Assembly (NCBI GenBank): GCA_000182565.2
Contig: KQ257454.1
Source: Spizellomyces punctatus DAOM BR117
Lineage: Eukaryota
Reading direction: 5' to 3' (one strand)
Length of the DNA: 64,000 nucleotides
Numbering within the stretch: position 1 is the first letter of the stretch; the number at the start of each line of letters is the position of its first letter. The notes under the pieces are model-generated. The model made no database searches. It was given only the letters and a program-made list of their open reading frames with translations, and was not told the DNA's origin. The translations under genes were made by a program, and so were the position numbers. Below are positions 2,801 to 64,000 of this stretch, piece by piece.

Positions 2801-3064
2801 AAACTAAACTAATGGGTGTCGCTGCACCGCAACTGATTTATTGGTGGCGGTACTGATCTCTTCCTTTTCCGCACTGGCTCGGGCCTCCACAGGTTGTACG
2901 AGGCACGCTGAAATCTAATGCGCCAATTGCCATTCTCCGAACCGGTTTTTTCGGTCGCGGTAACCCAATCGGTGGAGTTGGTCACGCGATTCGTGCTTCC
3001 CGCGTCCGATTTGGGCTTACTCGCGATCTCTCGAAGACGTCCTCGTCGTTACATCCCCCCTTTG
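2801..3064 (-). mobile_element. Partial 3' LTR plus polypurine tract of a Gypsy-like element
   Basis: Minus strand reads AAAGGGGGGA (PPT) directly followed by TGTAACG (LTR start at 3053); AATAAA further in; truncated by the gap. Confidence 0.55.
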
Positions 3065-3102
3065 AAGAGCCAACGCACCGGCGCTCCGAGCGGGGGTGTT
3101 GG

Positions 3103-6100
3103 TGTTGGGGAAAGTCGAGAAATAGATGTTATCCTACAACTAGACTGGGTGCACCTGAGAGGTGGATAGCCATGTTAGAAGCTATGCCGTCGCTAGAGAA
3201 CGTCTCTGGGGACTTTGTGTCGAAAGAGCAGCGAAAGAGTTGTATTACAGAAAGAAAAACGGGGTCCTAAATATAGTACAGATCACATGATGACAACCTG
3301 ACTTCGACCTCTAATTTTGGGCGCATAAAGCAACTAACTAACGAAGTGTTTCGACAAGCTTGTAGCGCGGATTCAGGGCTTTCTAGAACCGTCTTGGTCT
3401 TGTCGATAAGTTAATAACTCGCTAAGTTATTCAAGTTACCGTCCCATGGCAACTTCGATGAAATCAATCAATTAATTCCAACACTTCCCCTCGCCCAAAA
3501 TTCCATTCTATTCTTAGGCTCTTTTGTTTGTTGCGTCATCCAGTGATTGAACGCCAAGTTCTACACAACACTGGGCAAACCTCGGTGCAGGAATTGCCTT
3601 GGTAAGAACATCTGCAGTCATCTGTTGAGTGGGGCATCTTCTAACTGAAATCTCGCCACTCTGGATGTGTTCCCTGAGGAAATGATAGCGTATATCAATA
3701 TGCTTCGTCCGTTGTGAAATCAGGGTGTTCTTTGCCAGTTCCATCGCGCCGTTGTTATCCATTTTGAGCACAGTAGGGCCTTGTTTGACTTCCAAAAACC
3801 CGAGCTCTGCTAAGAGGTTTCTCATCCAAATAACCTCTCGTGCACAATCTGATGCCGCAATATACTCTGCCTCAACTGTGGAGAGTGCTGTGCATCTCTG
3901 CTTTGAAGATTTCCAAGCAATAGCGCCGCCTGATAGCTTGAGAAGCCATCCTGAGGTTGACTTCCTATCTGAGAGGTCTCCACCCCAATCTGCATCGGAA
4001 TAGGCTTCCAGATCGTCGCTGTTTTGCTGATAAACAAGCCCGTAGCTTGCTGTCTTTTGCAGGTACCGAAATATCCTCTTTATGCCCGTCCAGTGCATGT
4101 TTCCAGGCGCCTCACAGTGCCTAGCAAGTATCCCAACTGCTGTACTGATGTCAGGCCTAGAGGCAATCGCAGCAAACATCAAGCTGCCTATTGCACTGCG
4201 GTACTTCGATTTATCTACCATGGGTTGCCTTGACCCAAGAGCCTCAAATCGAACAGAGGTATCCAGTGGGGTCGACACTGGGTTCGAGTTTTCCATCTTG
4301 AATCTTCTGAGCACTTCACCAATGTAATGTGCTTGATCCAGGGAAAGAATGCTGCGCGGTTCATCTCTGATTACCCTTAAACCCAAGATGTGGTGGATAG
4401 GGCCAAGATCCTGCATCTTAAATCGCGCTGACAATGTCGTTTTGACCCAATTCATGTCTTCTTTTGACTTGGTTGCAATAACCAGATCATCGACATAAAC
4501 CGCCAGTATGATGAGCCATTTGTTTATGTTTGCGCACTCATCTTTCTCATGTGGTTTGGCTTCCTGAACCTCTTCCCCTTGCCAAATGTAAACACAAGGC
4601 TCGTGCGCCAGCTGTTTAAAGCTGTTTTCGAGGAGGTACGCATGCAGGGTATGGTTCCATAGCCTTCCAGCTTGCTTCAAACCGTAGAGACCCTTCTTCA
4701 ACAAGCAAACAAACTTGTCTGGTGGGTGCTCTGTTGAAATTCCTAGGGGTTGCTCCACATACAGCTCTGAATCAACCTCGCCATTCAGAAATGCTGTTGC
4801 AACATCCATTTGATCCAATAAAAGCCCATGCTTTGCTGCCAGGGCAAAGATCAGTCACAGAGCAGGGAAGGAGATGACGGGTGAAAAGGTCTCATCATAG
4901 TCCAATCCATGGATTTGACTGTACCCTTTGGCTACAAATCTCGCTTTGTGCCTTTCTACAGTGCCGTCAGTCTTCCGCTTTGTTTTATAGACCCATTTGC
5001 TGCCAATTACAGGCCTTCCAGAGGGTCTGGGGATGATTTCCCACGTCCCATTTTCGACCAGTGATGCATATTCAGCCTCCATGGCTTGCATCCAGGCTTC
5101 TTTCTGGGGTGATCGCAGCGCGCCATTAAGTGTTTTTGGGTCTTCATGGCCGAAACCTTCTTGCTGCATCTCCAGATCTGTGGTGGTGGTGGTGGGGGGT
5201 CCTGAAGGCGTTCCTAGGTGTGCATGGAAGGCGTCAACATCGTTGTTTTCTCCTTCCAAATCACTGGGGAAATGCTGCTGTTCCCAGAGGTCAAGTGTGA
5301 CAGTGTCCTTGACATGCTCCAATGGCTCCCAAGTACTCTCAGTTCTGGGGTAACCCTTCCATTTGACAAGGTAGTATGTCTCGTCGCCTTGTTTATCCTC
5401 AGCAAGGATCTCCTCCACAGGGAACTCCTGCTCTTCTTCTTCCAGAAGTGAACCCATCAGTTCAGAGCATGCGTCAGATTGCCCTTTAACTGCCTCATCA
5501 AATGCCACATCCCTAGACTCCAACATAGTGTCATTCTGGGGATTCCACAGTCAATAACATCATGAATTTTGCCCATAACCAACCAGAATCAACTTTGCTG
5601 ATGTGGGATCCAGTTTCCCTCGTAGTGGCTTCAGTATTTGCATGTAGGCAATGCATCCAATTGCTCTCAGATGGTCTACATTAGGGTGTGCCCCTGTCAA
5701 GGCCTCAGAGGGGGTAATCTTCCTCTCCAGCAGCACCTTGGTCGGGCTCAAATTCCTCAAATAATTGGCAGATTCCCAGACTTCTGCCCACAGCTTCTGG
5801 GGGAGGTTATTCTCGTGCAGAATAGACCGAACCTTATCCTCCAGAGTCCTGTTCAATCTCTCAGCAGCTCCATTCTGCTGGGGAGTATAGTGCATCATAG
5901 TTTGGTGGGTGATGCCCTCAGATTTGAGGTAGGCATCAAACTGGTGGTTCACAAACTCACCGCCGCCATCAGTTCTGAATGCCTTGATCGTCCTTTCAGT
6001 CAGATTCTCGATCCAGGCCTTAAATTCCTTGAACTTTTCTAGGCACAACGTCGCTGATTTCGAGTCGAGATAGAAGCATTTGCTATATCTGCTTCCAAGA

Positions 6101-8576
6101 TCCAAGAATGTGAGCACATATCTGGCTCCACCAAGCGATTTGGTGCGTATTGGTCCACATATGTCGCTACATATGACCTCCAAAAGCTGGTAACTCTTCT
6201 TGGGTGATTCAGGAAAGGGCAATCGTGTTTGTTTACCCTTCTGACATCCATCACAAAGCTGGTCTTCAACCACTGCTTTGCCATCAAAATTAAGACCATC
6301 AACCATACTGGTGAGCGTCTTCAAATTGCCATAACTTAAATGGCCTAACCGCCGATGCCACAGCTTCAGTTTCCCGCCATCCTGCTTCTCAGGGCAACCC
6401 AAAGCTTGGTCTTCATGCTGTACTTCAGCTCCCATCACTTGGGAGTCACAGCTCGCGCTGCCAGGGTAAGCAGCAAGCTTGTAAAGCTCCCCTTCCCTGT
6501 TTCCTGCAGCAAACAATCGCTTATCTAGATGGAATTCCACTCCTCCAGACTGCGAAAAGGTGACGTCCATGCCATTGTCAATAATGGCTCTGATAGACAG
6601 AAGATTGCAGCCCAACTCTGGGGCATACAGGACGTCCTGCAACACCACCTGCCGTTGATGTTGCTGTCCTGGAGTCTCCAACTCCAGGGGGATAGTACCA
6701 ATGCCTTCTGCATTGATAACTTCGTCATTTGCAAGCACAATTTGTCGTGAAATGGGCCTCAGATTGACAAAGAGTTCTTTGTGGGGACTCATATGCTGGC
6801 TACAGCCCGAATCAACTATAAATTGGACCTTCTTGCTGTAAGATTGCTGTGGTAGCTTCCTGCTAATCAAAGCAATGGCTTTCGCATCGTCCTGATGACC
6901 ATCCATTTGTTTATCCACAGCCAGCTTGGCTGTACTGTCTCCCTTGGCTGTTCCAGTGGTTTGCGACCCGCTCTTCTCCTTCATGGCGCATTGGTATGCA
7001 AGATGGCCTGGGTTCCCACAGGTAAAACAGGTCTTCTGCATCGTCTGCTTCTTGCCATTGGTGCCGTTGGTCGCCTTTCCATAGCTCTGGGAGTTGTGGG
7101 ACTGTTTCTGGTCGTCATATTGGTTCGTCTTAGCCGCATTGACATGAGCTTTCTTCCCTTGCTTTGACTGGTTGAATACCCGTGGGTTGTTGATGTATTC
7201 CAGTCTCAAAACAGCCAATTTGAGCGTCTCCATGCTGTCCAAGTTCGATGGATTTGCCTCAATGCTGGCTCTCAAATCCTTGCGCAATCCTCGCAGGAAT
7301 AATACCTTCATCACCTCGTCATGCAGCACCGTTGTTTGCATGGATAGATTGGTGAACTGGTCAATAAACTCGACAATGGTGAGGTTCTCTGTGTCCTGAG
7401 AGATGTCGAAAAGTCTCTCCAGAGTTTTCCTCTGGTAATCTGGGGGTGTGAAGCGCTCAAGCAGAGCCTTCCGCAGCTGACTCCAAGTCCTGATTCGCCT
7501 TGGATCATCCTCCTCAACCTCTGTGAGGTGGTTCCCCCAAAAAACCTCTGCAGAATCCTTCAGCTTTGACGTGGCAACCTTCAGTTCCAGTCTGGGGGGC
7601 AGTTCTGCTATGCTGAAGTACTCTTCAAGTTTGCGCACAAACTCTAGCAGCTTATTAGTGTTGCTACCACCATGGTAGCGAGGGACTTCTTCCCTCAAAG
7701 TCTTTAGCACCTGCTTCTCTTCCTCATGAGAGAATGTGCTCCGAGAGCCTTCTGACTTGATATCTGCATCCCTATGCCTCAAGTTCTGCTCTGGTTTGAA
7801 TGGCACCTCCTGCACCATCGTAGGAAGTGTTTCCGCGGCTCTAGCTGGCTGGGTTTGGGTCCTCTGTCTCAAAACTTCCTGAATATTGTTCAGAAGCTCT
7901 CTTCTGAACATCCTCATCTCGTCCTTGAACTCCAAAAAGGACTCCTGAGTGAGGTACTGGGGCTCGTCTTGAGCTTCCAGGTAACTACTGATGTCGTCGT
8001 CCTGAGCTTGCTGAGCTTCCCTTCTGGCGTGCTCTTCAATCTCCTCAAACTGACCAGAAAGAGACATCTTTCTCTTTCCCTTTTGCGCTGGTGTTCTGTC
8101 CAGGGGCATCCTTTGCTTCCTTTTTCAATACACCGCTCAGTAGTTCGTATTCGCGTTGTTCTCAGCTGTCTGACAGGCAACCAGGGCTCATAACCTGTTG
8201 GGGAAAGTCGAGAAATAGGTGTTATCCTACAACTAGACTGGGTGCACCTGAGAGGTGGATAGCCATGTTAGAAGCTATGCCGTCGCTAGAGAACGTCTCT
8301 GGGGACTTTGTGTCGAAAGAGCAGCGAAAGAGTTGTATTACAGAAAGAAAAACGGGGTCCTAAATATAGTACAGATCACATGATGACAACCTGACTTCGA
8401 CCTCTAATTTTGGGCGCATAAAGCAACTAACTAACGAAGTGTTTCGACAAGCTTGTAGCGCGGATTCAGGGCTTTCTAGAACCGTCTTGGTCTTGTCGAT
8501 AAGTTAATAACTCGCTAAGTTATTCAAGTTACCGTCCCATGGCAACTTCGATGAAATCAATCAATTAATTCCAACA
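3103..8576 (-). mobile_element. Ty1/Copia LTR retrotransposon family A (Gypsy-type Gag, chromodomain after integrase)
   Basis: 381-bp LTRs at 3103-3483 and 8196-8576 (TG...CA, one mismatch by eye); PBS GGTTATGAGCCC at 8184-8195; PPT at 3484-3496; domain order PR-IN-RT-RH. No TSD (GTTGG vs GGTAC). Confidence 0.95.
3514..8109 (-). pseudogene. gag-pol polyprotein of Copia-A with three in-frame TGA stops
   Basis: CCHC knuckle CFTCGNPGHLAYQC, protease VDSGCSQHM, LWHRRLGH, integrase DICGP/TDGGGEF/AERLNR, chromodomain, RT QMDVATAFLNG/YVDD, RNase H YSDADW/KHIDIRYHF. ORFs 5560-8109, 4855-5526 and 3514-4818 are all in one frame. Confidence 0.93.
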
Positions 8577-8577
8577 G

Positions 8578-10725
8578 GTACAGCCTGACAGTTGGCTATA
8601 TTCATCTGGGGGAACATCTTTCGAGAATGTAACATCATCTCAGATGAAAGGCATCCTTGATATCGCTACGAATGCTAGTGTAAATACACTTATTTCTGGT
8701 AAACAGAACAACATCACTACATCAACTAATTTGAGTGTTGCTTCAGTTACTTCTAATGGTTATCTAACGGTTCTCAATGCCGCCAATCCAACGTATATGT
8801 CCCTGGTGAACACAGCATCAAATGTGACATGGGGACTTCGAGTCGCAGGTTCTTCAGCAGATGGGGTTTTGTCTGCCGGTGGGTTCAGTTTGAACTGTAG
8901 TGCTAATAACATTGGCTATGTTTTCAAGATTACTAATACTGGTATTACTCAGGTGACATGTACCACGGATTCCTCATCTGCAACAACAGGTTCTCTACAA
9001 GTTGCAGGAGGTGTTGGAATATCGAAGAATCTCTACTGTGGAGGAAGTCTGTACTCCAATAATCTGAAAGTTGCGACTGAAAGTTATGTAGGAACAGCCA
9101 TTGCTTCAAAACAGGCATCAAGTCCGCTCCTAGATTCTATAAGCGGCCTTGTACCAGCAGCGAATTCATTTATCATAGGAAGTTCTGCAACTTCCTTCAC
9201 AGTTAAAAGTCCAGCAGAAGTGAGAGCGATTTTAGGTGTTACTGACGTAGACATTTCAGGGAAACAAAATGCTTCACCATTACTCGATTCTATCTCTTCA
9301 TTGACACCAACGAGTGGAATGTTTGTTATGTCTGATGCCACAGGGTTTGTTCTTCAGTCCACGAGTACGGTGAAGAGCATTTTAAACATTCCTGATTACG
9401 CATCAGACATCTCTACACTGCAAGCAAATGTCTCTACATTGCAAGGGAACGTCTCTACATTGCAATTGACTATTTCAACAAAACAAGATGCTCTCACAAC
9501 TTCTAGTCCATTGTCGGTGGCTACCATCACTTCCAATGATACCACTGATTCAACATCAGCCAGCACTGGAGCACTTCAAGTGAAGGGTGGAGCAGGAATC
9601 GCTAAGAAACTATGGGTTTCTGGTGCACAAATGACCATTCAGAATACTAACTATAGCGTTGGCCAAACCAATACCCTCATGTTCTCACATGCAACTCAGA
9701 ATATATGTTATATACAATCCTATCTCCCAGGTAGCAACAATGTAGACCTAAACTTTTTTGTCGGGTCAAGTAATTCATCCATTCGAAGTATGGTGCTTAA
9801 TGGAGCAACCGGAATCGCCTATTTTGACAGAGGCATAGTGGTGTCAAGTACCACCGATTCCACATCTATAATGACAGGTGCACTTCAGGTTGCAGGAGGA
9901 ATTGGAGTCTCCAAAAACATCTTCGCTGGAGGAGACTTGACCATTGGAAACAATAATGTAAGTGGATTACATTCTCTTGTGGTGAGGAACACAGACACAG
10001 GAACGAATGCTTGTTCGATTTTGTATCTAACTGCATCTGGTGGTTCTTCCGTTCTTTTTATGAATGGAAGTAATCGTTCAGTGGATGGAGGGCAAAATTG
10101 TTTAACTCTTCGTAACGATGTGGGAGCCTTACGCCTTCAATCTCAGGGAGCAAAAGGCATTTACGTTTATCCTAATACAGGTAATGTTGTAGTTGAAAGC
10201 ACCACTCCAGCCTTATTGAGTACAACTGGCGCTTTGGTTGTGAATGGTGGTGTAGCGGTTGGGGCTCATGTGGTTGCTGGAGGAAATTTGTATAGCAATG
10301 GGCCCGTGTACTTGAATGGTCAGGTTTGCACTACTCAAGCATGGGTGTCAACTCAAGTGTTTCCAAAGATTCAAGTTTTCAAACTGTTGACTAAAGATGT
10401 TATCACCACTGGTAGTGGTACAAAGACGTTCTATGTTACTACAGCAGGCCGGGCGTTGATACGCTATACAATCAACTTGCATGGCACCAATAATGCAAAT
10501 GGGACTTTAAATATACATCTCGGAACCAATGTTGGTTCCATGGCGTCAGTCTTTTCCAGTGATTTTAACTATAATGCTGGAGTGAACCGAACAGTTTATG
10601 CCTCATTTATTGTTTCTGGCTTGGTTCCCGATACGGCCTACTTTACAAATTTTGGTGCAGTAAATGCTGCTCCGGACATAAGTACAGACATCACAACGAT
10701 AGAGATTACGGAATTGGGCCCTTAA
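8578..10725 (+). CDS. Fibre/tail-fibre-like repeat protein, 5'-truncated by the Copia-A LTR
   Basis: Frame is open from the LTR edge (VQPDSWLYSSGGTSFENVTSSQMKGIL). Four T(D)STS-TTGALQVAGGVGI-K repeats, two KQ-SSPLLDSIS-L repeats and a heptad (VSTLQxN) coil. Confidence 0.75.
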   Translation, partial: VQPDSWLYSSGGTSFENVTSSQMKGILDIATNASVNTLISGKQNNITTSTNLSVASVTSNGYLTVLNAANPTYMSLVNTASNVTWGLRVAGSSADGVLSAGGFSLNCSANNIGYVFKITNTGITQVTCTTDSSSATTGSLQVAGGVGISKNLYCGGSLYSNNLKVATESYVGTAIASKQASSPLLDSISGLVPAANSFIIGSSATSFTVKSPAEVRAILGVTDVDISGKQNASPLLDSISSLTPTSGMFVMSDATGFVLQSTSTVKSILNIPDYASDISTLQANVSTLQGNVSTLQLTISTKQDALTTSSPLSVATITSNDTTDSTSASTGALQVKGGAGIAKKLWVSGAQMTIQNTNYSVGQTNTLMFSHATQNICYIQSYLPGSNNVDLNFFVGSSNSSIRSMVLNGATGIAYFDRGIVVSSTTDSTSIMTGALQVAGGIGVSKNIFAGGDLTIGNNNVSGLHSLVVRNTDTGTNACSILYLTASGGSSVLFMNGSNRSVDGGQNCLTLRNDVGALRLQSQGAKGIYVYPNTGNVVVESTTPALLSTTGALVVNGGVAVGAHVVAGGNLYSNGPVYLNGQVCTTQAWVSTQVFPKIQVFKLLTKDVITTGSGTKTFYVTTAGRALIRYTINLHGTNNANGTLNIHLGTNVGSMASVFSSDFNYNAGVNRTVYASFIVSGLVPDTAYFTNFGAVNAAPDISTDITTIEITELGP

Positions 10726-12059: not shown

Positions 12060-15000
12060 TATTGAAACTTAGCGCTTGGAACACTGATTTCCCGTGTAGA
12101 AATCACTTCTGGAAGACCTAGTAATGCCTGTGGCCGCTAGTAAGACTTCTGGGTGCAGTAACTTGTGGGATAACACGGTTGTTTTATTCCAGAGACGTTC
12201 AAAAGTCCCCTTTATATAACCCAGTACATTCTCCAGCCTCCCTCCGCCTTTGTTTACTGTTTACATGCTTCAGCCCACTTGTTTACATGCTCAGCAGTGC
12301 TCAGCAGTGCTCAGCAGCTTCAGCCATGCCTTGGCAAACATTACCTGAAGATCTAGATCATCACAAACCTTCCAGACCTTCTAAGACTGCTTACATGATG
12401 ATTTACCCCTTTAAATCATTCACACACGCGTCTGTGATCATTCTGATCACTCTAAGTCCAATTCCCCACGTTGTAACTTAGCCAAATCAGATGTGAACTG
12501 TCTAATGACATCCCAGCATGATCTCACATGATTTATAGATCATACAGCGTGGTTTAAGCCTGAATCTCAACACTCCCACTCAGTGAATCATCTGATTTCC
12601 AACAGAGACCCATTTTACCACAAAGTTTAAGGTGCTTTGTCTTGGGTAGAGCCTTGGTGAGAATGTCAGCTGTCATTTCTTCTGTCTGACAGTACTTGAG
12701 GCTGATTTTCTTGTCTTCTACTGCTTGTCTGATGAAGTGGTGCCGCACATCAATATGTTTGGTCCTTGCATGATGTGTTGGGTTGTTGGCAAGTGCTATG
12801 GCGCCCTGATTGTCACCATACAATGTTGTAGGACCACTTTGCTGATGTCCTAGCTCGCCTAGGAGTGTTCTGAACCAGATAACTTCCTTGGTAGCTTGAC
12901 AAAGAGCCATGTACTCTGACTCTGTTGATGATAGAGCGACTGTAGGTTGCCTCTTGCTTTGCCAGCTGACTGTGCTGTTGCCAATCTTGACTAAGAAGCC
13001 AGTGGTAGACTTCCTGAAGTCCAAATCACCGCCCCAATCTGCATCAGAGTATGCAGATAGCTCCCACTTGCTCTGAATGCCGCCCAGTTGAAGTCCTAGG
13101 TCTGTGGTGCCCTTCAGGTACCACATGATCCGTTTGACTGCTATCCAGTGCTGATGTCCGGGGTTGGAAAGGTACTGGCTAACTGATCCAACTGCCACTG
13201 CTATGTCTGGTCTGGTGCCCAGCATTGCATAAATGAGACTTCCAACAGCACTTCTGAAAGGAACCCCGTTCATTTCTTGCTGTTCTGCCTCAGTTTGTGG
13301 TGACATGGCCTTGGTGAGCTTGTGGCCATTCTCTAGTGGTGTGGCAACTGGTTTGCTGTTACTCATATTGAATTTCTTCAATGTTTGACTGAGGTACCGC
13401 TGTTGGGAGAGCCAGATTGACCTGTTGACTCTGTCCCTGACCACTTGGATGCCGAGAAAATGCTCTAACTGGCCCATATCAGCCATCTTGAACCGCTTCT
13501 TGAGTTCTTCTTTGAGTTTTAACAACTCCTGGTCGTCCTTTGATGCCAGAATAAGGTCATCCACATACAGGATAAGGTGGATGCCCATCTTCTTGTTGAT
13601 GTACAGCCCGTGGTCTGATTCACACCTTTCAAAGCCAAGTTCTTTGAGTTGCCCGTCAATGACTTTGTTCCAGGCTCTTGGAGCTTGCTTTAACCCATAC
13701 AAACTCTTCTTTAGCTTGCAGACAAGCCCATTTGCCGTGGCAAAGCCTTCTGGTTGGTCCATGTAGATGTCCTCCTCAATGGTCCCATTCAAGAATGCTG
13801 TTTTGACATCCATTTGGTGAATCTCCATGTCCTTCATGGCTGCTAGTGTCAGAACTGTCCTGATGGTTGCAAACTTGACTACTGGGGCAAATGTCTCCTT
13901 GTAGTCCAGTCCTTCAACTTGGGAGTATCCTTTGGCTACCAGTCTGGCCTTGTAGCGCTCTACAGAGCCATCTGACTTGAGTTTCAGCTTGAAAACCCAC
14001 TTGCAGCCAACTGTGGATCTTCCTGGTGGTAGTTTGACTAAGTCCCATGTCTGATTCTCCATCAGAGAGTCATATTCTGCTTTGACAGCCGCCTCCCACT
14101 GTTTGGCATCATGTCTGGTCCTAGCTTCAGCCAGAGTGCTGGGTTCTTCCTGTGGAACTTCCCCAATGGTGAAGGCAAAAGCCAGGTTTGACTGAGTTGG
14201 CTTTGCAATCCACCACTCTCCCGGTGGTTTGTGAAATCTGGCACTCTTCCTGCTGAGTTCTGGCACTTCCTCAGCATCCTGGAAGTCGTCCCCATCATCT
14301 TCTGATGCTGAAGAGTTGTCTGAAGTGATGCTAGATGGTCTCTGAGTCTCTTGAACCATCCCTAGCCCTTCTTGGTCGTCCAAGAACGAAGGCTCCCCTC
14401 CCAGAGGCATCTGTAGCTCTTGGTCTTGCTGTGGTACACTCTGCAGTTGCTGCTGAGTGCTCCACATCAAGTTTTCATCAAAGATGACGTCCCTTGACAT
14501 GACAACTTGGTTCATTTCAGGTACCCACAGTCTGTAGGCCTTACTCTGAGTGCTGTAGCCGACCATGACTGCCTTCTTGGCCTTCTCATCAAGTTTTGAC
14601 CGCTTTTCTTTTGAAATATGAGTGTAGGCCACGCAGCCAAACACTCTGAGATGCTGGAGAGCTGGTTTACCGCCTGTAAACTCTTGAAATGGTGTTGATT
14701 GGTTGCTGAGTGCTGCAGTGGGGCTCCTGTTCCTGAGATAGACCGCTGTCATTATTGCCTCGCCCCAGAACTTGTAGCTGAGTCCACTGTGGTGCAGCAT
14801 GCACCTTCCCATTTCCACCAGCGTCCTGTTCATCCTCTCAGCAACACCATTCTGCTCTGGTGTGTAGGGGGTGCTGAATTGCTGCTGAATTCCCTTCTGT
14901 TTGCAGAATTTCTTGAATTCTTCGCCCACATACTCTCCCCCATTGTCTGATCTGAGAGTTTTGATCTTCTGCCCCGTGAAGTTGGTTGCCCAGGCCTCAA

Positions 15001-17250
15001 ACTCCTTGAATTTGCTGAGAACCTCACTCTTCTCCTTCAGAAGATAGACTGCCGTCATCCTTGACTTGTCATCAATGAATGTGACAAAGTACTTTGCCCC
15101 ACCATGACTTGGTGTCTTCATGGGCCCACACACATCACTGTGAACCACCCCCAGCAGTAGAGCCGCTCTAGCTGCTTCTCCCTTTGGAAAGGGACGCCTG
15201 GTGATCTTTCCAATGGCACAGGCTTCACATGGTGATATTTCTGTGTGATTCTTGACCTCCAGACCGCTTCCCAGCTGGTTCCTAGCCAAGATTTTGATGC
15301 TGTTGACGTTCAGGTGTCCTAACCTGCGATGCCAGAGGTCCAAACTCATTCCAGAGGCTATGTTTGCATGTTCTCTTGCATGAAACATGTATAGACCGCC
15401 GCCTAGAGTTCCCTGGATTGCTTCCTGACCGTCTGAAGTCTTGATACAGCATCCCTTGCTGCCAAACTCAACTTTGGCACCGTTTTCAGTGGCTCTTCTT
15501 ACTGAAAACAAGTTCTTTTCAAGCTTGGGAACAAACCACACGTCTCTGAGGGTACAGAATCGGTTTCTGCCTGTCTCAAGTGTGATCTGGCCCTTCCCTA
15601 TTGCCTGAACTGTTCTGTTGTCCGCCAGATGGACTTGAATTGGTGACATCTCCATGTAATTGGTCATCCAATCCTTCCTGTGTGACATGTGCTGTGAAGC
15701 ACCCGAGTCCACAATCCACCAGACTGCTCCCTGAGAGGTTTTGGTGTCATCTCCCAACTGAGCAAAGAATAGGAACTCATTCTGAGTTGCCTGACTGGTG
15801 CTGGCTTGATTGGCTTGTTGTTTGGTGTCCGCCAGAAACTTCCTGCAGTCCTTCTTGAAGTGGCCTTTCTTGTTGCAATAGAAGCACTTCCCTGCTATCT
15901 TCTTGGTCCCACCATGCTTGCCAACCTTCTGCCCGCCTTCCCTGCTGAAAAAGGCCTTCCCTTTGCTATCTCCTTCACTCCCAGCTTCCTTCCTGCGTGT
16001 TTCTTCATGCAAAAGCCGTGATGTGAGGAATTCCAGCGTCAGAGAATCACTCCTGGCCTCCAAAGACACCACCAGCTGTTCATAACTCTCTGGTAGGCTG
16101 TAGAGTAGGGTGATGACTTGGTCTTCTTCACTGACTGGCGCCCCAATGGCCTCCAACTGCTGAGCCATTGTCCTGACCGTGTTTATGTGTCCCAACATGC
16201 CCCCAGTGCCGTCTTCCATCTTCAGAGTGAGAAATTTCCTCCTTAGATAGAGCCTACTGGCAATTCCCTTCCTTTGGTGGACGTCACTGAGCTTTAACCA
16301 GGCCTCTTTTGCAGTTACAGCGGTCTGTACATGCATGAGTTGGGCATCACTCAGTGACAGAGCAATTACAGCCATTGCCCGCTCATCCCTTCTCCTCCAA
16401 TCCTTCTCAGAGGTTCCCTCCATGCTCTGATCCCCCTCAATAACACCCCACAGCCCCTTTTCCTTCAGCAACATCGTCATTTTGAACTTCCAGAGGTGGT
16501 AGTTCACGCCATTGAACTTTTCCATCGTGAGTTTGGTGTCCAAGTCCGTGTTTGACATGTCTGAGCTGATTTGGTGAGTGGATGTGCTGTTGGAGAAGAG
16601 GTGAAATCGTCCTGGTGTGGTAGGTGGTCCAAATATGAGGTTGGGAAGAAGATAGGTCCGTCAGGAAGATGGTGTGGCCGTCAGAAAAGAGATTTGAAGC
16701 AGGAAAATATCAGTGATAGCTATCAGGGCTCATAACCTATTGAAACTTAGCGCTTGAAACACTGATTTCCCGTGTAGAAATCACTTCTGGAAGACCTAGT
16801 AATGCCTGTGGCCGCTAGTAAGACTTCTGGGTGCAGTAACTTGTGGGATAACACGGTTGTTTTATTCCAGAGACGTTCAAAAGTCCCCTTTATATAACCC
16901 AGTACATTCTCCAGCCTCCCTCCGCCTTTGTTTACTGTTTACATGCTTCAGCCCACTTGTTTACATGCTCAGCAGTGCTCAGCAGTGCTCAGCAGCTTCA
17001 GCCATGCCTTGGCAAACATTACCTGAAGATCTAGATCATCACAAACCTTCCAGACCTTCTAAGACTGCTTACATGATGATTTACCCCTTTAAATCATTCA
17101 CACACGCGTCTGTGATCATTCTGATCACTCTAAGTCCAATTCCCCACGTTGTAACTTAGCCAAATCAGATGTGAACTGTCTAATGACATCCCAGCATGAT
17201 CTCACATGATTTATAGATCATACAGCGTGGTTTAAGCCTGAATCTCAACA
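12060..17250 (-). mobile_element. Intact Ty1/Copia LTR retrotransposon family B
   Basis: 513-bp near-identical LTRs at 12060-12572 and 16738-17250; TSD TGGGA on both sides; PBS GGTTATGAGCCCTG; PPT TGAGTGGGAG; single 1334-aa ORF. Confidence 0.97.
12554..16558 (-). CDS. Copia gag-pol polyprotein (Copia-type Gag, CCHC, PR, IN, RT, RNase H)
   Basis: [68 protein letters not shown]; uninterrupted. Confidence 0.96.
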   Translation of the reverse strand: MSNTDLDTKLTMEKFNGVNYHLWKFKMTMLLKEKGLWGVIEGDQSMEGTSEKDWRRRDERAMAVIALSLSDAQLMHVQTAVTAKEAWLKLSDVHQRKGIASRLYLRRKFLTLKMEDGTGGMLGHINTVRTMAQQLEAIGAPVSEEDQVITLLYSLPESYEQLVVSLEARSDSLTLEFLTSRLLHEETRRKEAGSEGDSKGKAFFSREGGQKVGKHGGTKKIAGKCFYCNKKGHFKKDCRKFLADTKQQANQASTSQATQNEFLFFAQLGDDTKTSQGAVWWIVDSGASQHMSHRKDWMTNYMEMSPIQVHLADNRTVQAIGKGQITLETGRNRFCTLRDVWFVPKLEKNLFSVRRATENGAKVEFGSKGCCIKTSDGQEAIQGTLGGGLYMFHAREHANIASGMSLDLWHRRLGHLNVNSIKILARNQLGSGLEVKNHTEISPCEACAIGKITRRPFPKGEAARAALLLGVVHSDVCGPMKTPSHGGAKYFVTFIDDKSRMTAVYLLKEKSEVLSKFKEFEAWATNFTGQKIKTLRSDNGGEYVGEEFKKFCKQKGIQQQFSTPYTPEQNGVAERMNRTLVEMGRCMLHHSGLSYKFWGEAIMTAVYLRNRSPTAALSNQSTPFQEFTGGKPALQHLRVFGCVAYTHISKEKRSKLDEKAKKAVMVGYSTQSKAYRLWVPEMNQVVMSRDVIFDENLMWSTQQQLQSVPQQDQELQMPLGGEPSFLDDQEGLGMVQETQRPSSITSDNSSASEDDGDDFQDAEEVPELSRKSARFHKPPGEWWIAKPTQSNLAFAFTIGEVPQEEPSTLAEARTRHDAKQWEAAVKAEYDSLMENQTWDLVKLPPGRSTVGCKWVFKLKLKSDGSVERYKARLVAKGYSQVEGLDYKETFAPVVKFATIRTVLTLAAMKDMEIHQMDVKTAFLNGTIEEDIYMDQPEGFATANGLVCKLKKSLYGLKQAPRAWNKVIDGQLKELGFERCESDHGLYINKKMGIHLILYVDDLILASKDDQELLKLKEELKKRFKMADMGQLEHFLGIQVVRDRVNRSIWLSQQRYLSQTLKKFNMSNSKPVATPLENGHKLTKAMSPQTEAEQQEMNGVPFRSAVGSLIYAMLGTRPDIAVAVGSVSQYLSNPGHQHWIAVKRIMWYLKGTTDLGLQLGGIQSKWELSAYSDADWGGDLDFRKSTTGFLVKIGNSTVSWQSKRQPTVALSSTESEYMALCQATKEVIWFRTLLGELGHQQSGPTTLYGDNQGAIALANNPTHHARTKHIDVRHHFIRQAVEDKKISLKYCQTEEMTADILTKALPKTKHLKLCGKMGLCWKSDDSLSGSVEIQA

Positions 17251-44646: not shown

Positions 44647-46974
44647 TCAAGACATCCTGTCTACAAATAGGGTCGCCGGTGTTGCAGGATAGAGTTTGTT
44701 ATACTTTGCAAAAATAAAATGAATGCATCGAATGATAAACGCCACACGTGAAGCTGTCCCCTTACCCGCTCCAGCACAGCCTTTTCACAGATGCGCACCC
44801 CATCCAATTGGTTGCCCAGTGTCATCCATCCGTCCCTTGTATTATGGGGCCTGCCAAATATTTCTTTCAGAACGAGAAAATATCCATTTAGAAAACTGGC
44901 AAGGATATACGATCGAAATAATTTGGATGCCATACCAAGCTTGCGAGTGCCGGGACATAACCGATCGATGAGGCTGTATATTTCGTCGGGCTTGCGACTC
45001 GTCTCTCTCACTTCAGCCACTAGAACATCCCCATCAATCCCACCCGTCTGGAGGTGACAACCACCTTTGACGCCCACTAGGCAATGCTCCTTGCTATGAT
45101 TGAGCCAATGACCAGTTCGTCCCGTGCGGATCAATTTCTGTAGCTGCATAGTTTTGACCCAAATGAGTTCGTCAATCCGAGTGTATCTAACATTGCCAAG
45201 GGATCGCACTCTTGATTTTAAATACAATGCGTGATGGTGAATGAAAGCGCCTACCCCCAGATCGCCATGCAGTCGCGGCCTAACTCCATTGCTCTCCCAG
45301 TCACCCAGAGAAACAAGAATCCTTCATCTTGGAGGTCCTGTATAGGCATCTCTTTCATCTCATCGTCAGTCATCGTGCCGTATGGCAGCTAATTTGCCAT
45401 GAGAAAACGTAGGTCATGGAGTGTTTGTCTACTGTCCACATTCATTCACACTCACGTTCATATGGATATCCCAAGGAGGATCCGCCATTATGACCGTAAA
45501 TTTCCCAAGAATGCTTAAATCGAATTTCCGAACATCACACGATATCCACTGGGCGGGCAGCTGAAATGGCAATAAATGTAAGTCGACAAAGTGGAGTGGC
45601 AAGAAGATATCATCGTAAAGCCAGTTCGCACAGGATTTCCAATCTGGAGTACTGGTAGTGGTCGATCAATGTCGATCGTCACATTGACTTCATCCAGCTC
45701 ATAATGTACATATTTGCATTGATCCAATCTGTGGCAGGTGTTTAGATATGAGCAGTCACCTAAACTGACATCTGTTTGAGGCTTAATGATCCGCCGAAAG
45801 TGCAACTACATTACCACCTCCTTTAGTGTCCGCGGGTGCATTCCGTGCAGATATCACCTCACCTTTGGACATGGCGTACTATGTTGATGTTTATTACAAT
45901 CAGTCCTTAAGCCCCATTCACAAAATTCTTTGAACTCTACGTCCTCTCTGTTCTTAAACTACGGAATGTCAAATTGATTTTCACAGAACCACGCAAAAAG
46001 GACGCTGCAGGTGAAAGAGCTGGGGTAACAGCACCTTTTCTTGGATCAAGTTCTGCTTCGCTGTCGGTCGATGTATCAGATTGTGGAGCTCATTCCAAAT
46101 TTTCCCATTCGCTGTTCCCTTGAAACTGGGTGTGGCGAGCAGTTCTTTGATGGACTCTATGCCTGGTAGTCATCCGCATCAGCAATTATGAACCAAAATC
46201 ATCGTTGCTTTGCAGTACCAGGTGGTTCCGGATGCAGCGAAACGAATACTTCATGGACCCAGTCCACCTCCAACTGCCTATGCCTTGTAGACGGCGGATA
46301 TAGAGTAGCCGGACAAGTGCTATTTTATTGCAGTTGATCAGCGGTCGCGTACCGTTCAGATGTATATTTACAAACCTTTTGGATAACACTCTGGTGACAG
46401 CTACTCTCTTTCCGGAGCCCACCAGTGCAATATCCAATTGGAGATATGGTTCCCCGTCCCTGGACTCAAGGGCTCTCAGCGTCCTTTCCAAAGATTGAAC
46501 ATTTTTCCAATTGTAATGCGCCATTGCAAGCGTCGGCGTGAATTCTATTAGGCTGCAAGATGTGATGAAGAATTTTTCGATCATAATTATCAATGTTGGC
46601 GTTATGGAAACAGTGACTCCAGCGTACTTTCTCAACAGCGTGTGTGAGTCCATTGGAAGCCATTCAATGCAGTTTGACGTGTTTAAAAAGTTCTGTACAA
46701 GAGGTTCCAAGTCGCGCTGAGAAAGCAGAAGGGCTGATGCAAGTAGATCTTCGTTTGGTTTATTAGTATAGGTGTCTCCTGGAGACTGTATGCGACGAGG
46801 AGGTGATGGCCGGCGTAAAAGGGAGGTCTTTCGGACTCGTCCTTCAAACGACGTGGAGGCATCCAACATTACGCCTTTCGCCTTTCTTTCAGCTATCCTA
46901 CGCTTGAGTGACATGCTTAGCAAACCGTGGTTATCAGCATTCGCCGAGCTCTCGACGTCCGTATGGCCGTCCAT
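44647..46974 (-). CDS. METTL3: mRNA N6-adenosine methyltransferase catalytic subunit (MT-A70; METTL3/IME4)
   Basis: DCSYLNTCH...CKYVHYELD zinc finger, [53 protein letters not shown]...LGNQLDG. Confidence 0.95.
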
Positions 46975-47128
46975 GTCTGATAGGAAGATGAGTGCGTAGG
47001 GCGGATATTGACTTGCCGATCGTGACAAAACAGTTGATGACTCATCCGACAAGCCACTCGCGATCACCTCGCTCCACCTCCTCACTTGCCCGTCTACCCA
47101 CCCATTTCCGCTTGTCACATACCATGTC

Positions 47129-50100
47129 ATGGAGGACGTTCGCGGCGCTCAGGAACAAGATAATGCGACGCAGCACGTGCAAGTAGATGGGGCAGTCGGC
47201 AATCCTAAAGAAATCCGCGCCGCAATATACCTCGATGATAATAGTTCGGAAGAACCCGAGCTGCAAATGGAGCCCGTACTTCACGTAGAGACCCCCTGTG
47301 CGGCGGAAAATGTGTCAAAATCATATTTCAGTACCAGCCCTCCGCAGTATGAAGCCAAGTCGACGCTTCTTCGTGCTGATGATGACAGTGAACAGCCGGA
47401 CCTTCTGCCGACCAGCGGGACCCGCGTTTCCATGCGAGGTGCGCAGACAGCCATTCGAGACCCAGGACGCCAGCACAGCAGTGATGATACGTCGCACGAA
47501 GCACCCCACGATAAAGGCGAGGATGAAAGTGATGCGGTTGAGGAAGAACGAAGAAATGCTGGACGCGACCAACATAACGATTCGACGGGAGAGGAAGAAT
47601 ACGACGACGATGAGGAGGATGATGACGACCCTGAAACAGACGACGGGGAAGAAGATGATGATGAAGAAGAAGAAGAGGAAGAAGTGGATTCCGCCGCTGA
47701 TAACGATGACGATGATGAAAATGACAACATCAATGACGATGACGAGGAAGAAGAGCCCAGACTCAAATATCAGCGACTGGCAAGCACCTTAAATGAAACC
47801 CTCAAGAAGGATGCGGTTAGCGCAATGGCGGTGTCCGATCGCTTTCTGGTAATATAATGCTTATAATTCTCACCTCTGCATGTCGCTAAGACCATTTGTC
47901 TTCGAACGGATGTATCGATTTTGTCAGGCGTTGGGTACACATTGGGGAATAGTACATATATTGGATCTCATTGGCACCGATGTAAAACGCTTCAACTGTC
48001 ATTCGGCCTCTGTGAACGCACTGAGTATCGACTCGAATGGAGAGTTTGTAGCTAGCGCGTCGGACGATGGTACGATGTGGTGTCTCGTACTGTTGTAACC
48101 CATTTATCGCATCTCTCTTACCACTCCCTTTATCAGGGAAAGTGGTAATCAGCAGCTTATATACCACGGAAATTCAGTCGTTCAACTACAAGCGCCCAGT
48201 AAAGGCCCTATGCCTAGAACCGGACTACAGTCGGAAGTCAACCCGGCAATTTGTATCGGGTGGCATGGCGGAATACCTCTTGATGAGTGGCAAAGGTTGC
48301 AGTCTAGGCCCCCGTCTGGCATTATGACTCGTTTGGACTAACATGATTGTCTTACCGATGTTAGGGTGGTTCGGAAATAAGGATGTCGTTATTAGCTCAG
48401 GCGAAGGACCCATATATGCTGTGCAATGGCGTGCAGATTTCATTGCTTGGGCAAACGAGGCCGTAAGTCATCACGGTAATATATCGTCGAACTTGCTCGA
48501 CTTACCAGCAACTTTCATAGGGTGTGAAAATCTACGATGTCAGTAGCCAGCAAAAGTTCGCATACGTGGATCGCCCGCCAGATAGCCCAAGGGCGGATCT
48601 ATTCCGTTGTAATTTGGTCTGGAAATCAGAAATAGAGCTGCTAATTGGCTGGGCGGATAGCGTCAAACTTTGTGTTATTAAGGTGCGCTGATTTGGTGCC
48701 CATAAACCAACATTACTTCACTGGAAGAGTCTGCTAGACATTCATCGTAGGAGCGGTCCAAGATGGACATCGCGTCGGGCCTACCGTCACGCTTTGTGGA
48801 AATTGTCTGCCAGTAAGTGTTTTTCCAGCGTCCCGATAATGCAGGGTATTTGTGATAAGGCGAGGCACCCACCAAAGCTCATTTGCCTTCCAATGTGAGG
48901 TTTCGCACAGATTTCATCATATCTGGCATTGCACCGCTGGAGGAAGAGATAGTACTGCTTTCATATATGACAGATTTGCCCGAATCAAGGAACGTGGATG
49001 TCATCCAGCAAGGTCCTGTTAAAAGGACGGTATGTTCCACATCCATTATATCGGTACAGATGGAATAGGACTTGGCTATATTTCTGAGCGTTCGGAATCC
49101 TCCAGAAAGCCAAGCCGCCAGAAATCCATATAGTAACGTCCCTCGGAGAGGCTGTTGGCAATGATGTTCTTTCATTGCTTGGATTCGAGCATTATCGTGC
49201 TAATGACTACCGACTTGGTATGAGGTAGCGTTTGTACGCGTCGCATTGCATAATTGACCATTTGGGGTTTACCTGTACAGAGTATCTGCCGGCGGCAAAT
49301 CCGGCTGAGAACACGTTTTACATTGTGTCCCCTAAGGACATTGTTGTTGCAAAACCGCGAGATTTAGATGACCACATTGAATGGCTTGTAGAACGCAAGA
49401 GGTACGAGGAAGCACTACAGGCCGCGGAAAAGGCCGGTCCGACCTACGAAGGCCGCTTACAGGTGCACTCGATCGTGGACATTGGACGAAAGTACATGGA
49501 TACTTTGTTAGACCAAGGTACCAGGATGGATGATCATTTCCAGGGTGGGACTGGCAACTATTTATCAGACTTCTTATAGGTCGTTTCGATGAAGTTGCAA
49601 GTATATGTCCAAAAATACTTCGTGCAAACGGCGAACTATGGGAGGAGTGGATTCGCAAGTTCGCGAAATATGATCATTTGATGGTTGGGTTTCCTTCCCT
49701 TCAAATACCCGAACCAAGCGTCGCAAAAATGTCAATCCTTTTGTTTGCAAATCAGATTATATACCCAAAAATTCCCGTGAAAAATCCTCAACTCACGACG
49801 GACATTTATGAAATGGTGTTGGAGTATTTGCTGAATACAGACCAACAAGTAAACTATTGTTTGATTTCATATACTCACACCCGATCCTACGCTCACTCCT
49901 TATTCAGCTCTTCCTTAGCACGATTCAAAGCTGGCCGTCTGATATTTACAGCACTGCGGACGTAGTAAAACAAGTTGAAGACTATTTGGCAAAGGATCCA
50001 ACAAAGAAGCTACTCAAAGAAGCTGCAATGCAACTGTAAGCGCCTCTGAACCGTTGCTGGTTGAGACCTCCGTTCACCAGGCCTTCGTTTAGCCACATCC

Positions 50101-51931: not shown

Positions 51932-52164
51932 CCTTGTAATAAATAAAATCAAGCTATAGTTTATATTGGAAATTCTCCGACCAAACTATCCAGAAAGCCA
52001 CTTCTCGCCCATTAAATTTTGAGCTCAAAACGTCAGGGGGGGAAGGGAAGCGCGCACCCTTTCACTGGGCCTTCCTTTGGGGGTTTTTGCAAGCCAATTG
52101 GGGGCTTTGTTCTTGTTCCTTCCTGCCCTTTGAAGGTTGGTCGACACTGGGGGAATAACCGACA

Positions 52165-55749: not shown

Positions 55750-55937
55750 AGGGGGACCGCGTCTATTGGGTGGCACATTGATTGTGAATACATACCGTTT
55801 TCAGTTTCAGAGCGAGTTTTCATTTGGTCTTGCGTGGTGACTGGACTCCTATACTAGACAAAACTGTCCAAGGGATTTTTACTTTATTGACAAATGCTTC
55901 TATGAATATTGCTGTGGGCTTCAATATGGCCACCGTT

Positions 55938-62065: not shown

Positions 62066-62234
62066 CATGCGTTAGATAGGCATAGCGGGATAGTTGCTGA
62101 TATGTAGAAGGGTGAATCTGCTGGAGCGGACTGGCAGAGCAAAATGAATAGACTAGTTTAAACACGGCCAATATTGCGCCAGAGTCTTCTTTGATATTCT
62201 ACCCATCTAACAGATGTAACGGACCGTAAAATCT

Positions 62235-63902: not shown

Positions 63903-64000
63903 TGATCCTCTCTCTGTGCGGCGATGCCACCTTGCACTGTTGAAATTTGTTCGGCTGTGCGAATGTATATACATTCTTTGGACTATCTTCGTTGTTGAGA

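Follow-up and report, generated by a model that had tools for sequence, protein, structure and literature searches.

The main finding of this work is that a complete Ty1/Copia retrotransposon of the chytrid fungus Spizellomyces punctatus DAOM BR117 carries a chromodomain between its integrase and its reverse transcriptase (RT). The element lies at 3103-8576, minus strand, in a stretch of 64,000 nucleotides of contig KQ257454.1 (assembly GCA_000182565.2), hereafter the window, and its LTR pair frames the Pol that includes the chromodomain. We regard it as a structurally complete, coding-dead copy of a multi-copy Copia, a family whose integrase chromodomain would tether integration to silent chromatin, and we give this reading a probability of roughly 60%. 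Chromodomain integrases provide the classic example of how a transposon reads host chromatin marks in order to find safe landing sites and, to our knowledge, nearly all of those described belong to Gypsy elements. The Copia clade described here, with a predicted intact cage, also occurs in an early-branching fungus in whose transposons CpG is strongly decayed. If our reading is true, the strategy recurs across LTR superfamilies and kingdoms, and the host would provide a tractable system, with public ChIP and RNA runs in which the relation between mark and landing sites can be asked.

The features of the element, in the direction of transcription, are the following:

8196..8576, minus strand: 5' LTR, 381 bp, with TG...CA ends and terminal inverted TGTTGG/CCAACA
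8181..8195, minus strand: putative primer-binding site, proposed from its position at the inner edge of the 5' LTR
5560..8109, minus strand: Gag/protease/integrase open frame of 849 aa, which stops at the first TGA
aa 177-276 of the 849-aa frame: Retrotrans_gag (Pfam)
aa 359-375 of the 849-aa frame: zf-CCHC (Pfam)
aa 430-513 of the 849-aa frame: Pol_BBD (Pfam)
aa 581-627 of the 849-aa frame: gag_pre-integrs (Pfam)
aa 644-743 of the 849-aa frame: rve (Pfam)
aa 805-849 of the 849-aa frame: SH3_retrovirus (Pfam)
5551..5562, minus strand: two in-frame TGA codons, at 5560-5562 and at 5551-5553, both falling in the SH3-like domain of the integrase
5263..5427, minus strand: chromodomain, residues 34-88 of a 223-aa frame; Pfam match at 5281-5418
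5152..5262, minus strand: linker between chromodomain and RT, poorly conserved and probably disordered; likely place of the protease cut between integrase and RT
4264..5052, minus strand: Copia-type reverse transcriptase (RVT_2), with Pfam matches on either side of a stop
4855..4857, minus strand: third in-frame TGA, in RT
3514..4263, minus strand: end of Pol up to its natural stop, assigned to the RNase H region because it aligns with Copia relatives along its full length; Pfam reported no separate family here
3484..3496, minus strand: putative polypurine tract, a purine-rich 13-mer abutting the 3' LTR, proposed from position and composition
3103..3483, minus strand: 3' LTR, direct repeat of 8196-8576

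The two LTRs are identical at 380 of 381 positions, the sole mismatch being G at 8219 against A at 3126. ARAGORN found zero tRNA genes within the 64-kb window, and an Rfam scan of the left flank and the window returned nothing. The short target-site duplication of Ty1/Copia elements is absent from this copy (GTTGG to the left of 3103, GGTAC to the right of 8576), which suggests that its present flanks may differ from its insertion site. For intact diatom elements without such a duplication, an origin by recombination between two copies has been put forward (PMC2806351). About 300 bp from the element there is also an assembly gap (N run 2160-2800).

The element carrying the chromodomain belongs to Ty1/Copia. 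Along its Pol frame, Pfam placed Pol_BBD, gag_pre-integrs, rve, SH3_retrovirus, Chromo and RVT_2 in that order, so that a single LTR-flanked element displays the succession protease, integrase, RT and RNase H by which the Ty1/Copia superfamily (Pseudoviridae) is recognised. RVT_2 was matched on both sides of the stop (E 9.6e-17 for profile positions 1-61 and 2.7e-38 for 79-242), and RVT_1 gave no match in the element at E up to 0.01. The Gag is a Retrotrans_gag (PF03732, E 1.2e-10), for which Ty3_capsid scored 28.4 bits, under its cut-off of 29.1; a Copia-type Gag (Retrotran_gag_2 or UBN2) was not found in the element, and another element of the window, Copia-B, has Retrotran_gag_2. It is Pol, and not the Gag family, that defines the Copia superfamily, the use of Gag as a criterion being our own reading. 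A Gmr1-like Gypsy with a Copia-like order was excluded, since RT, protease and the accessory domains of the integrase are all Copia-type.

An earlier note on this DNA had placed a chromodomain at 5272-5427 between integrase and RT of a Copia, and this was borne out on the minus strand, where the interval translates into the 52-residue peptide EFPVEE...WEQQH; its plus-strand translation is an unrelated peptide. The minus-strand peptide shares its reading frame with the RT downstream and, as the note had said, with the integrase C-terminal motif SRDVAFDE, which lies 22 residues upstream. The Pfam scan proposed there as a check gave a match to Chromo (PF00385) with E 7.2e-14 and 51.9 bits, the cut-off being 25.1, over profile positions 3-51 of 53, a match far beyond chance. 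Searching the PDB with phmmer retrieved 57 sequences of chromodomains with E no higher than 0.001, headed by SUV39H1 (1e-8), CBX7 (7e-8), CDY1, LHP1, HP1 and MPP8. The AF2 model of the domain consists of three strands (37-46, 49-56 and 65-68) and a helix (76-85) with pLDDT 92-96, that is, the three-stranded sheet on a C-terminal helix of the chromodomain fold. With this model, Foldseek found the chromodomains of CBX7, HP1, Polycomb, CBX8, Rhino and MPP8 at TM-scores on target of 0.75-0.85, and its best matches were all chromodomains with H3K9me or H3K27me peptides or ligands bound (probability 1.00); the model likewise matches the chromodomain of SUV39H1. Since readers of K9 (SUV39H1, HP1) and of K27 (CBX7, Polycomb) are both near, the methyl mark is not readable from the sequence.

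The aromatic residues that the note had recognised at the cage positions are present in this copy as F, W and Y, which we take to correspond to Y24, W45 and Y48 of HP1. They are kept across a chromodomain alignment of 15 rows: each of the 14 rows that cover the first position has F or Y there, the W never varies, and at the third position 14 rows have Y and a single row F. The residues W, T, W and E of the KW...TWE motif are also invariant. By sequence and predicted structure, then, the domain is a true canonical chromodomain of the HP1/Polycomb type with an intact predicted methyl-lysine cage. Its three cage aromatics presumably make it like the "group I" chromoviral chromodomains, a group naming that reportedly goes back to Gao and colleagues in 2008.

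This particular copy is unable to make the polyprotein, because three TGA codons interrupt its frame. At 5551-5562 the frame reads NS*CY*LW and its metagenomic relative P0003 reads NSRCYRLW; around 4855-4857 it reads SFPAL*LIFALA and P0003 SFPSLRLILALA, so that P0003 has Arg at all three TGA positions. Reads from other copies in the host address two of the three sites: the base that restores CGA at 5553 was carried by 6/11, 68/70 and 7/17 reads in runs X18, X19 and X20, and at 4857 by 6/7, 96/133 and 17/20, respectively. A use of TGA as a sense codon was ruled out, given CGA in other copies at 2/3 sites and Arg in P0003 at 3/3. Moreover, of the 22 C>T and G>A differences listed between copies, 19 fall at CpG. 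The window copy, compared in this way, has three CGA-to-TGA nonsense changes along with other CpG transitions. The earlier note was silent on both the strand and the three stops.

The chromodomain is common to other copies of this Copia in the host and is characteristic of the family, not of a single element. Reads from three ChIP DNA runs (X18, X19, X20) were compared with the element, and depth over the two chromodomain bins amounted to 0.65-1.04 times the interior median. Reads skipping a part, here called joints, were not reported across the chromodomain in the three runs. In two of them the bins fall below the interior median (0.65-0.8 times), from which it follows that a minority of domain-less copies may exist. 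At position 5298 most reads encode Ala, in agreement with the clade consensus DTxALD, and the window copy encodes Thr.

The domain is also found in relatives outside the host. At least six carriers of PF00385 occur among the 120 relatives listed, including the five of highest identity (65, 55, 55, 52 and 47%), and in 14 metagenome proteins among 300 relatives examined a chromodomain precedes the RT start by fewer than 200 aa; a Pfam rescan verified the domain in 4/4 relatives tested. P0003, which has the highest identity among those listed, shares 65% identity over 98% with the 434-aa frame (RT/RNase H), and in the chromodomain it is identical at 37 of 52 residues. Relatives whose RT identity is as low as 43% still have the domain in a constant position and with an intact predicted cage, its spacing from RT varying between 13 and 58 residues with a linker variable in length and sequence. 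Full-length frames with the chromodomain are open in relatives of 1428-1492 aa, and wherever the N-terminus is present in the relatives, their Gag is of the Ty3-like capsid type (PF03732/PF19259). A metagenome DNA scan gave 11 loci, the chromodomain being covered only in the contig of P0003; at 56% identity, synonymous sites of these loci are saturated. Searching the ESM Atlas with the 223-aa frame returned generic RVT_2 clusters (scores 0.83-0.84).

A tree of RT/RNase H, built without the chromodomain from 13 chromodomain rows and 27 ordinary Copia rows, united 12 of the 13 in one clade (SH-aLRT 99) apart from the ordinary Copia rows. The remaining one, P0218, grouped among ordinary Copia, which indicates that the history of the chromodomain is not a simple single gain; a grouping of all 13 was not rejected (AU p 0.26). 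From these alignments, the element would be part of a deep Copia clade with metagenomic members and a common chromodomain at the integrase end. The earlier note had named the lack of the domain in other family members as what would speak against its claim, and even depth in the host, the 14 metagenome proteins and the 12-row clade are the opposite of that. More tentatively, and with a likelihood that we place somewhat below even, this may be an unrecognised deep clade of fungi and other soil microeukaryotes in which a Copia Pol is combined with a Ty3-like capsid Gag and a canonical chromodomain integrase, having gained its chromodomain independently of the diatom element CoDi-A. If true, the clade would be one more convergent "chromovirus" and the first to be described among the Copia elements of fungi.

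We hypothesize that the protease cleaves Pol in the linker downstream of the chromodomain, which would leave the domain on the integrase. There it could bind a methylated lysine of histone H3 (K9me2/3 or K27me3), the pre-integration complex would be tethered to silent, CpG-methylated, transposon-rich chromatin, and new copies would land away from genes, as with chromovirus integrases and, by another kind of tether, with Ty5. Heterochromatin targeting, considered here from one copy in one window, is suggested by the roles of chromodomains and integrase C-terminal tails elsewhere. The chromodomain of the chromovirus MAGGY is said to be a targeting module on the integrase tail, and the integrase tail of Ty1 reportedly binds Pol III. 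The targeting view of integrase chromodomains is stated in PMC5348765 and in a preprint on Ectocarpus (bioRxiv 10.1101/2024.05.11.593484).

A functional chromodomain need not choose sites, however. It could retain particles or cDNA on chromatin, travel with RT, or recruit silencing factors to the element's own copies, which would keep copy number tolerable. The domain, placed between integrase and RT, is flanked on either side by a disordered linker (residues 12-33 upstream and 89-125 downstream, pLDDT <50, as also over residues 92-123 of the 223-aa frame), so either could be its partner after cleavage, and a cut upstream would send it with RT; conservation of the cage, too, speaks of selection for methyl-lysine binding and not for targeting as such. 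Nevertheless, targeting modules sit on the integrase C-terminal tail in the LTR elements studied, the upstream linker is shorter than the downstream one, and RVT_2 begins only about 70 residues after the chromodomain, and we consider a role other than site choice unlikely. Just as unlikely, in our judgement, is that the domain is a relic of a dead element from which nothing is produced and in which it has no present role. The three in-frame TGA codons would fit this, as would RNA depth of 0-4.2 per bin column across the interior and an LTR RNA peak in which 55/60 reads at 8445 bear a base other than that of the window copy. This is true of the window copy but not of the family, in which other copies have CGA at two of the three stops and relatives retain intact chromodomain frames; the near-identity of the LTRs also argues against it.

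A recent local capture of the domain, from the resident chromovirus or from a host gene, or an artefact of mis-assembly, is very improbable. A Gypsy integrase tail with a chromodomain does lie 19 kb away (about 24368-24530, plus strand, with an in-frame stop inside), and the likeness to it that the earlier note had pointed out holds in so far as KWKGYP...TWEP is common to both; the nearby N run and the missing target-site duplication would also suit such an origin. Yet only 17/41 aligned residues are identical, mostly in the family-wide motif, against 37/52 between the window domain and that of P0003, and on this identity a capture from the resident Gypsy domain was excluded. The domain is, besides, in frame and in the same place in distant relatives, with even read depth and zero joints in the three runs. 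We retain tethering of integration to silent chromatin as the preferred reading.

The closest functional analogue within Copia is Ty5 of Saccharomyces, whose integrase C-terminal tail reportedly aims at heterochromatin by binding Sir4, although it does so with a short peptide ligand of a silencing protein and the window element would use a folded methyl-lysine reader. Chromoviruses of the Ty3/Gypsy type (MAGGY, Tf1, CRM, Tcn1) also bear the chromodomain on the integrase C-terminus, with a likely common role in tethering integration to methylated histones. They differ in that their chromodomain is at the end of Pol, whereas that of the window element is internal to a Pol with RVT_2 and the order protease, integrase, RT and RNase H, and its integrase has the Copia domains gag_pre-integrs and SH3_retrovirus; neither a Gypsy RT, nor the order RT, RNase H and integrase, nor a terminal chromodomain was found. 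LTR elements have gained integrase chromodomains repeatedly, as in Chronos of oomycetes and ECR-1 of Ectocarpus (PMC5348765; bioRxiv 10.1101/2024.05.11.593484). As described there, ECR-1 keeps the three aromatics as the window element does, but both are Gypsy-type elements of stramenopile hosts, in contrast to a Copia in a fungus.

The novelty attached by the earlier note to a chromodomain Copia was overstated, since CoDi-A of the diatom Phaeodactylum tricornutum, also called CoDi-I (CoDiI), has been in print since 2009 with a putative chromodomain at the integrase C-terminus (PMC2774666; PMC5348765). It resembles the window element in being a Copia with a chromodomain between integrase and RT, and we consider the novelty moderate because such elements are already described in diatoms. 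The comparison was made by published description, and no named diatom element was among the matches of the protein searches. The RT lineage of CoDiI is described as lying far from the classical lineages of Ty1 and Copia, much as the clade of the window element stands apart from the 27 ordinary Copia rows, and as diatom-specific (PMC2806351), whereas the host here is a chytrid fungus. For Copia, the literature consulted names only the diatom CoDi elements with a chromodomain (PMC2774666; PMC5348765; bioRxiv 10.1101/2024.05.11.593484), and no chromodomain Copia from chytrids or fungi was found in the open-access literature, Repbase, GyDB and paper supplements lying outside the search. As for the host, its genes indicate a chytrid close to Spizellomycetales: the best named matches of a peroxiredoxin exon are Phlyctochytrium arcticum (89%), Gaertneriomyces (87%), Fimicolochytrium (85%) and Powellomyces (81%).

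In the window, Copia-B (12554-16558) and two other Copia copies gave no Chromo match in Pfam, as the earlier note had said of Copia-B. A neighbouring 693-aa ORF, without a Pfam match, resembles clusters of viral fibre or C1q proteins (feature score 0.91), a weak lead to a viral setting. In keeping with a silent-chromatin setting, the element adjoins three nested Copia copies and remnants of Gypsy elements, and the observed/expected ratio of CpG is 0.53 in the element, 0.25 in Copia-B and 0.90 in the part with host genes (44-64 kb).

The peptide that the earlier note had singled out is the translation of 5272-5427 on the minus strand, and translation of the plus strand of this interval yielded no related peptide. 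It is part of a single long frame lying between two direct repeats, as follows:

3103-3483 and 8196-8576, minus strand: direct repeats (LTRs) of 381 bp each, starting with TG and ending with CA, with one base differing between them
8109 to 3514, minus strand: long frame with the Pfam order Retrotrans_gag, CCHC knuckle, Pol_BBD, gag_pre-integrs, rve, SH3-like domain, Chromo, RVT_2

In the Pfam scan of this frame, Pol_BBD represents the Copia protease barrel, rve the integrase core and the SH3-like domain the integrase C-terminal domain. Since the LTRs are paired, the Pfam domains are ordered and a purine tract adjoins the 3' LTR, the element is a complete Ty1/Copia LTR retrotransposon on the minus strand. 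The domain order within one frame bears out the claim that a chromodomain lies between the integrase and the RT of a Ty1/Copia element, in frame after the SRDVAFDE motif that ends the integrase SH3-like domain; the gap is about 22 residues, and the RVT_2 match starts about 70 residues downstream of the chromodomain.

The assignment of the domain itself, for which a scan with Pfam Chromo (PF00385) had been proposed, was clear: with a curated cut-off of 25.1 bits, the match scored 51.9 bits (E 7e-14) and covered profile positions 3-51 of 53. A sequence search of the PDB returned 57 chromodomain chains with E <=0.001, the best matches being SUV39H1 (1e-8), CBX7, CDY1, LHP1, HP1 and MPP8. When the 223-aa frame containing the chromodomain was modelled with AlphaFold2, using an alignment of 14 relatives as input, strands were placed at 37-46, 49-56 and 65-68 and a helix at 76-85 with pLDDT 92-96, while residues 14-33 and 92-123 were below 50. 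The top Foldseek matches in the PDB were chromodomains only (CBX7, CBX2, HP1, CBX8, MPP8, Rhino, SUV39H1 and Polycomb), with TM-scores on the target of 0.75-0.85 for crystal structures. The F/W/Y aromatic cage noticed earlier is indeed present in the window domain. These results show that the integrase carries, C-terminally, a folded chromodomain whose cage is conserved and which is flanked by disordered linkers.

The earlier note was also right that Copia-B, the second Copia family of the window, has no such insert. Its copies, with a Retrotran_gag_2/DUF4219 Gag, lie in a transposon nest at 12554-33975:

12554-16558: Copia-B copy with an unbroken 1334-aa frame
19525-23632, minus strand: second-family Copia copy
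24263-24530: Gypsy integrase/chromodomain remnant, in the spacer between mirrored Copia copies
25932-29061, plus strand: second-family Copia copy
29422-33975, minus strand: Gypsy element

The copies at 19525-23632 and 25932-29061 are mirror images around ~24.7 kb.

The chromodomain-bearing relatives of the element are metagenome proteins. With the 223-aa frame as query, a word-indexed search gave one protein with full cover, P0003 (56% identity), which carries rve, SH3_retrovirus, Chromo and RVT_2. Among the 120 matches listed for the RT/RNase H frame, PF00385 was present in six, including the five highest identities (65, 55, 55, 52 and 47%) and one at 43%. Together with the 150 matches listed when HMMER was run exhaustively against 1.84 billion representatives, 300 proteins were collected. 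In 14 of them, all metagenome-derived, a script placed a chromodomain fewer than 200 residues ahead of the RT start; nine of the 14 were among the HMMER matches listed, and a Pfam re-scan of carriers confirmed Chromo in 4/4. The chromodomain occupies the same place in all 15 aligned rows, with W, T, W and E of KW...TWE invariant and the cage aromatics kept.

The tree was built from the RT/RNase H region, with the chromodomain excluded (IQ-TREE, quick search, LG+C20; 44 rows cut, 40 built after removal of P0022, P0005 and P0187, whose coverage was partial, and of P0261, whose match was split). Twelve of the 13 chromodomain rows form one clade (SH-aLRT 99), in which the window element pairs with P0003 (support 98), and the 27 rows across that branch are plant, oomycete, animal and metagenome Copia together with the window's own Copia-B copies. 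The placement of P0263 is unsure because of its long branch (1.98). The chromodomain has been long retained within a Copia clade. The remaining carrier, the metagenome fragment P0218, groups with ordinary Copia by RT/RNase H, so the tree needs two changes; forcing all 13 rows together cost 9.6 log-likelihood units and was not rejected (AU p 0.26). The chromodomain of P0218 looks like the clade's own (DTKALEEWE helix), and recombination may have moved it from one Copia lineage to another. All four clade members on the tree with an N-terminus (P0039, P0041, P0062 and P0263) have a PF03732 and/or Ty3_capsid Gag, the type also present in the window element (7282-7581, minus strand), whereas Copia-B has Retrotran_gag_2. 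These Retrotrans_gag/Ty3_capsid families are usually tied to Gypsy and are not Copia Gag families. In two other metagenome Copia polyproteins, P0014 and P0015, integrase and RT are separated by another kind of insert, a few hundred residues long; that of P0014 matched no Pfam family at E <=0.001, and the insert may likewise serve in chromatin reading or targeting.

A chromodomain in Copia is not without precedent. Llorens et al. (2009; PMC2774666) described a putative C-terminal chromodomain in the integrases of diatom CoDi-like clade A elements and noted that all other Copia lacked it. As chromodomain-bearing LTR lineages, Ustyantsev et al. (2017; PMC5348765) and a 2024 Ectocarpus preprint (bioRxiv 10.1101/2024.05.11.593484) still list the same three only, namely chromoviruses, Chronos and diatom CoDi, and CoDiI is treated by Maumus et al. 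(2009; PMC2806351) as diatom-specific and distant from classical Copia lineages. In the open-access literature searched, no chromodomain Copia from fungi was found. As in the diatom CoDi elements, the domain of the window element sits at the integrase C-terminus, but the host here is a chytrid-like fungus. Either the element is the fungal representative of a lineage that extends further than was assumed, or its chromodomain was gained independently; both readings stand since CoDi sequences were not among the 40 tree rows. The feature that the earlier note pointed out is real, and its newness is lessened by the CoDi precedent (PMC2774666). The diatom precedent and a dead window copy mean that novelty had been overrated; we regard that of a chromodomain-bearing fungal Copia as moderate.

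In the Copia elements Ty1 and Ty5, the integrase tail is the site of the targeting module. On this basis, and on that of chromoviruses, the most likely mechanism would be a protease cut in the long variable linker downstream of the chromodomain, so that the domain would stay on the integrase, where it would bind di- or trimethylated H3K9 or H3K27 and thereby anchor the integration complex in silent chromatin. According to two sources citing Gao et al. (2008), the chromodomains of chromoviruses steer integration towards heterochromatin (PMC5348765; bioRxiv 10.1101/2024.05.11.593484). The setting of the window copy, beside a nest of CpG-depleted transposons, fits targeting. Of the heterochromatin-targeting Copia proposed earlier, the domain and its position hold, and the targeting step is what these precedents would suggest.

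The window copy is dead. Its frame contains three in-frame TGA codons (5560-5562, 5551-5553 and 4855-4857), at all of which P0003 has Arg (NS*CY*LW in the window versus NSRCYRLW for the first two, SFPAL*LI versus SFPSLRLI for the third). Reads from three ChIP DNA runs with the same organism label (X18, X19 and X20) were placed on 2900-9400. The base that makes CGA was found at 5553 in 6/11, 68/70 and 7/17 reads, respectively, and at 4857 in 6/7, 96/133 and 17/20. Among the 40 read variants listed (449 further ones lie beyond these, and 5562 is outside the 40), 19 of 22 C>T and G>A differences were at CpG. At 5298, in the chromodomain helix, most reads encode Ala, the clade consensus, versus Thr in the window copy, a difference that is also a CpG transition. 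The CpG observed/expected ratio is 0.53 in the element and 0.25 in Copia-B but 0.90 where the host genes lie (44000-64000); TpG+CpA is raised in the window transposons relative to this gene region. A repeat-confined, CpG-specific C-to-T decay is the signature seen in the two ratios of this chytrid-like genome. Since the differences cluster at CpG and the element's CpG ratio is low, the three stops are most plausibly explained by CpG-to-TpG decay in a silenced copy, a decay that we infer to reflect cytosine methylation. Given the near-identical LTRs, the copy is either young or was copied in trans with the damage already present.

The chromodomain is a trait of the family, being present in host reads as well as in the relatives: across the three DNA runs its two bins had a summed depth of 0.65-1.04x the interior median, and no joints were reported over 2900-9400. 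Interior depth was ~5-8x that of the right flank in these runs, which suggests several copies in the host, provided that the right flank occurs only once and ChIP coverage is even. At 5524-5689, seven clustered variants, transversions included, occur in ~90-98% of X19 reads and in at most half of the X18 and X20 reads, and X19 depth over the element is ~4-8x that of the other ChIP runs; a second subfamily seems to be strongly enriched in the X19 pull-down. In the RNA run X17, where 899/976 reads fitted only in part, depth has a local peak of 49.7 in the 5' LTR (8325-8541) versus 0-4.2 in the interior. T was found at 8445 in 55/60 RNA reads versus C in the window copy, and these reads therefore derive from other copies.

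No target-site duplication is present, the five bases being GTTGG left of 3103 and GGTAC right of 8576. Repeat sequence makes up the left flank (2900-3102), whose depth is ~10x that of the element in each of the three DNA runs and from which many reads continue beyond 3102 into different sequence (144 in X19, agreement 0.99). The flank has the top RNA-run depth of the 2900-9400 stretch (118 in one bin column) and gave no Rfam match, no tRNA match and no second copy within the window; an assembly gap lies at 2160-2800. The duplication was probably lost through recombination between two copies, as proposed for intact diatom elements without duplication by Maumus et al. (PMC2806351), and an assembly mis-join is a possible alternative cause. 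With either, the present flanks may differ from the original insertion site.

Next to the element, a 693-aa ORF (8644-10725, plus strand) had no Pfam match, nor had the ORFs at 124-783, 845-1633 and 1721-2159. The nearest ESM Atlas clusters of the 693-aa ORF are viral fibre or C1q-like (feature score 0.91, 149 shared features), a weak lead as a sign of a "viral island". Ordinary eukaryotic genes occupy the right half of the window. They include an MT-A70 methyltransferase and, as read from ORF translations, a peroxiredoxin and a fragment of ribosomal protein L10. The best named matches of the peroxiredoxin exon (57562-57999, minus strand) are chytrids of or near Spizellomycetales, none of them identical: Phlyctochytrium arcticum (89%), Gaertneriomyces (87%), Fimicolochytrium (85%) and Powellomyces (81%).
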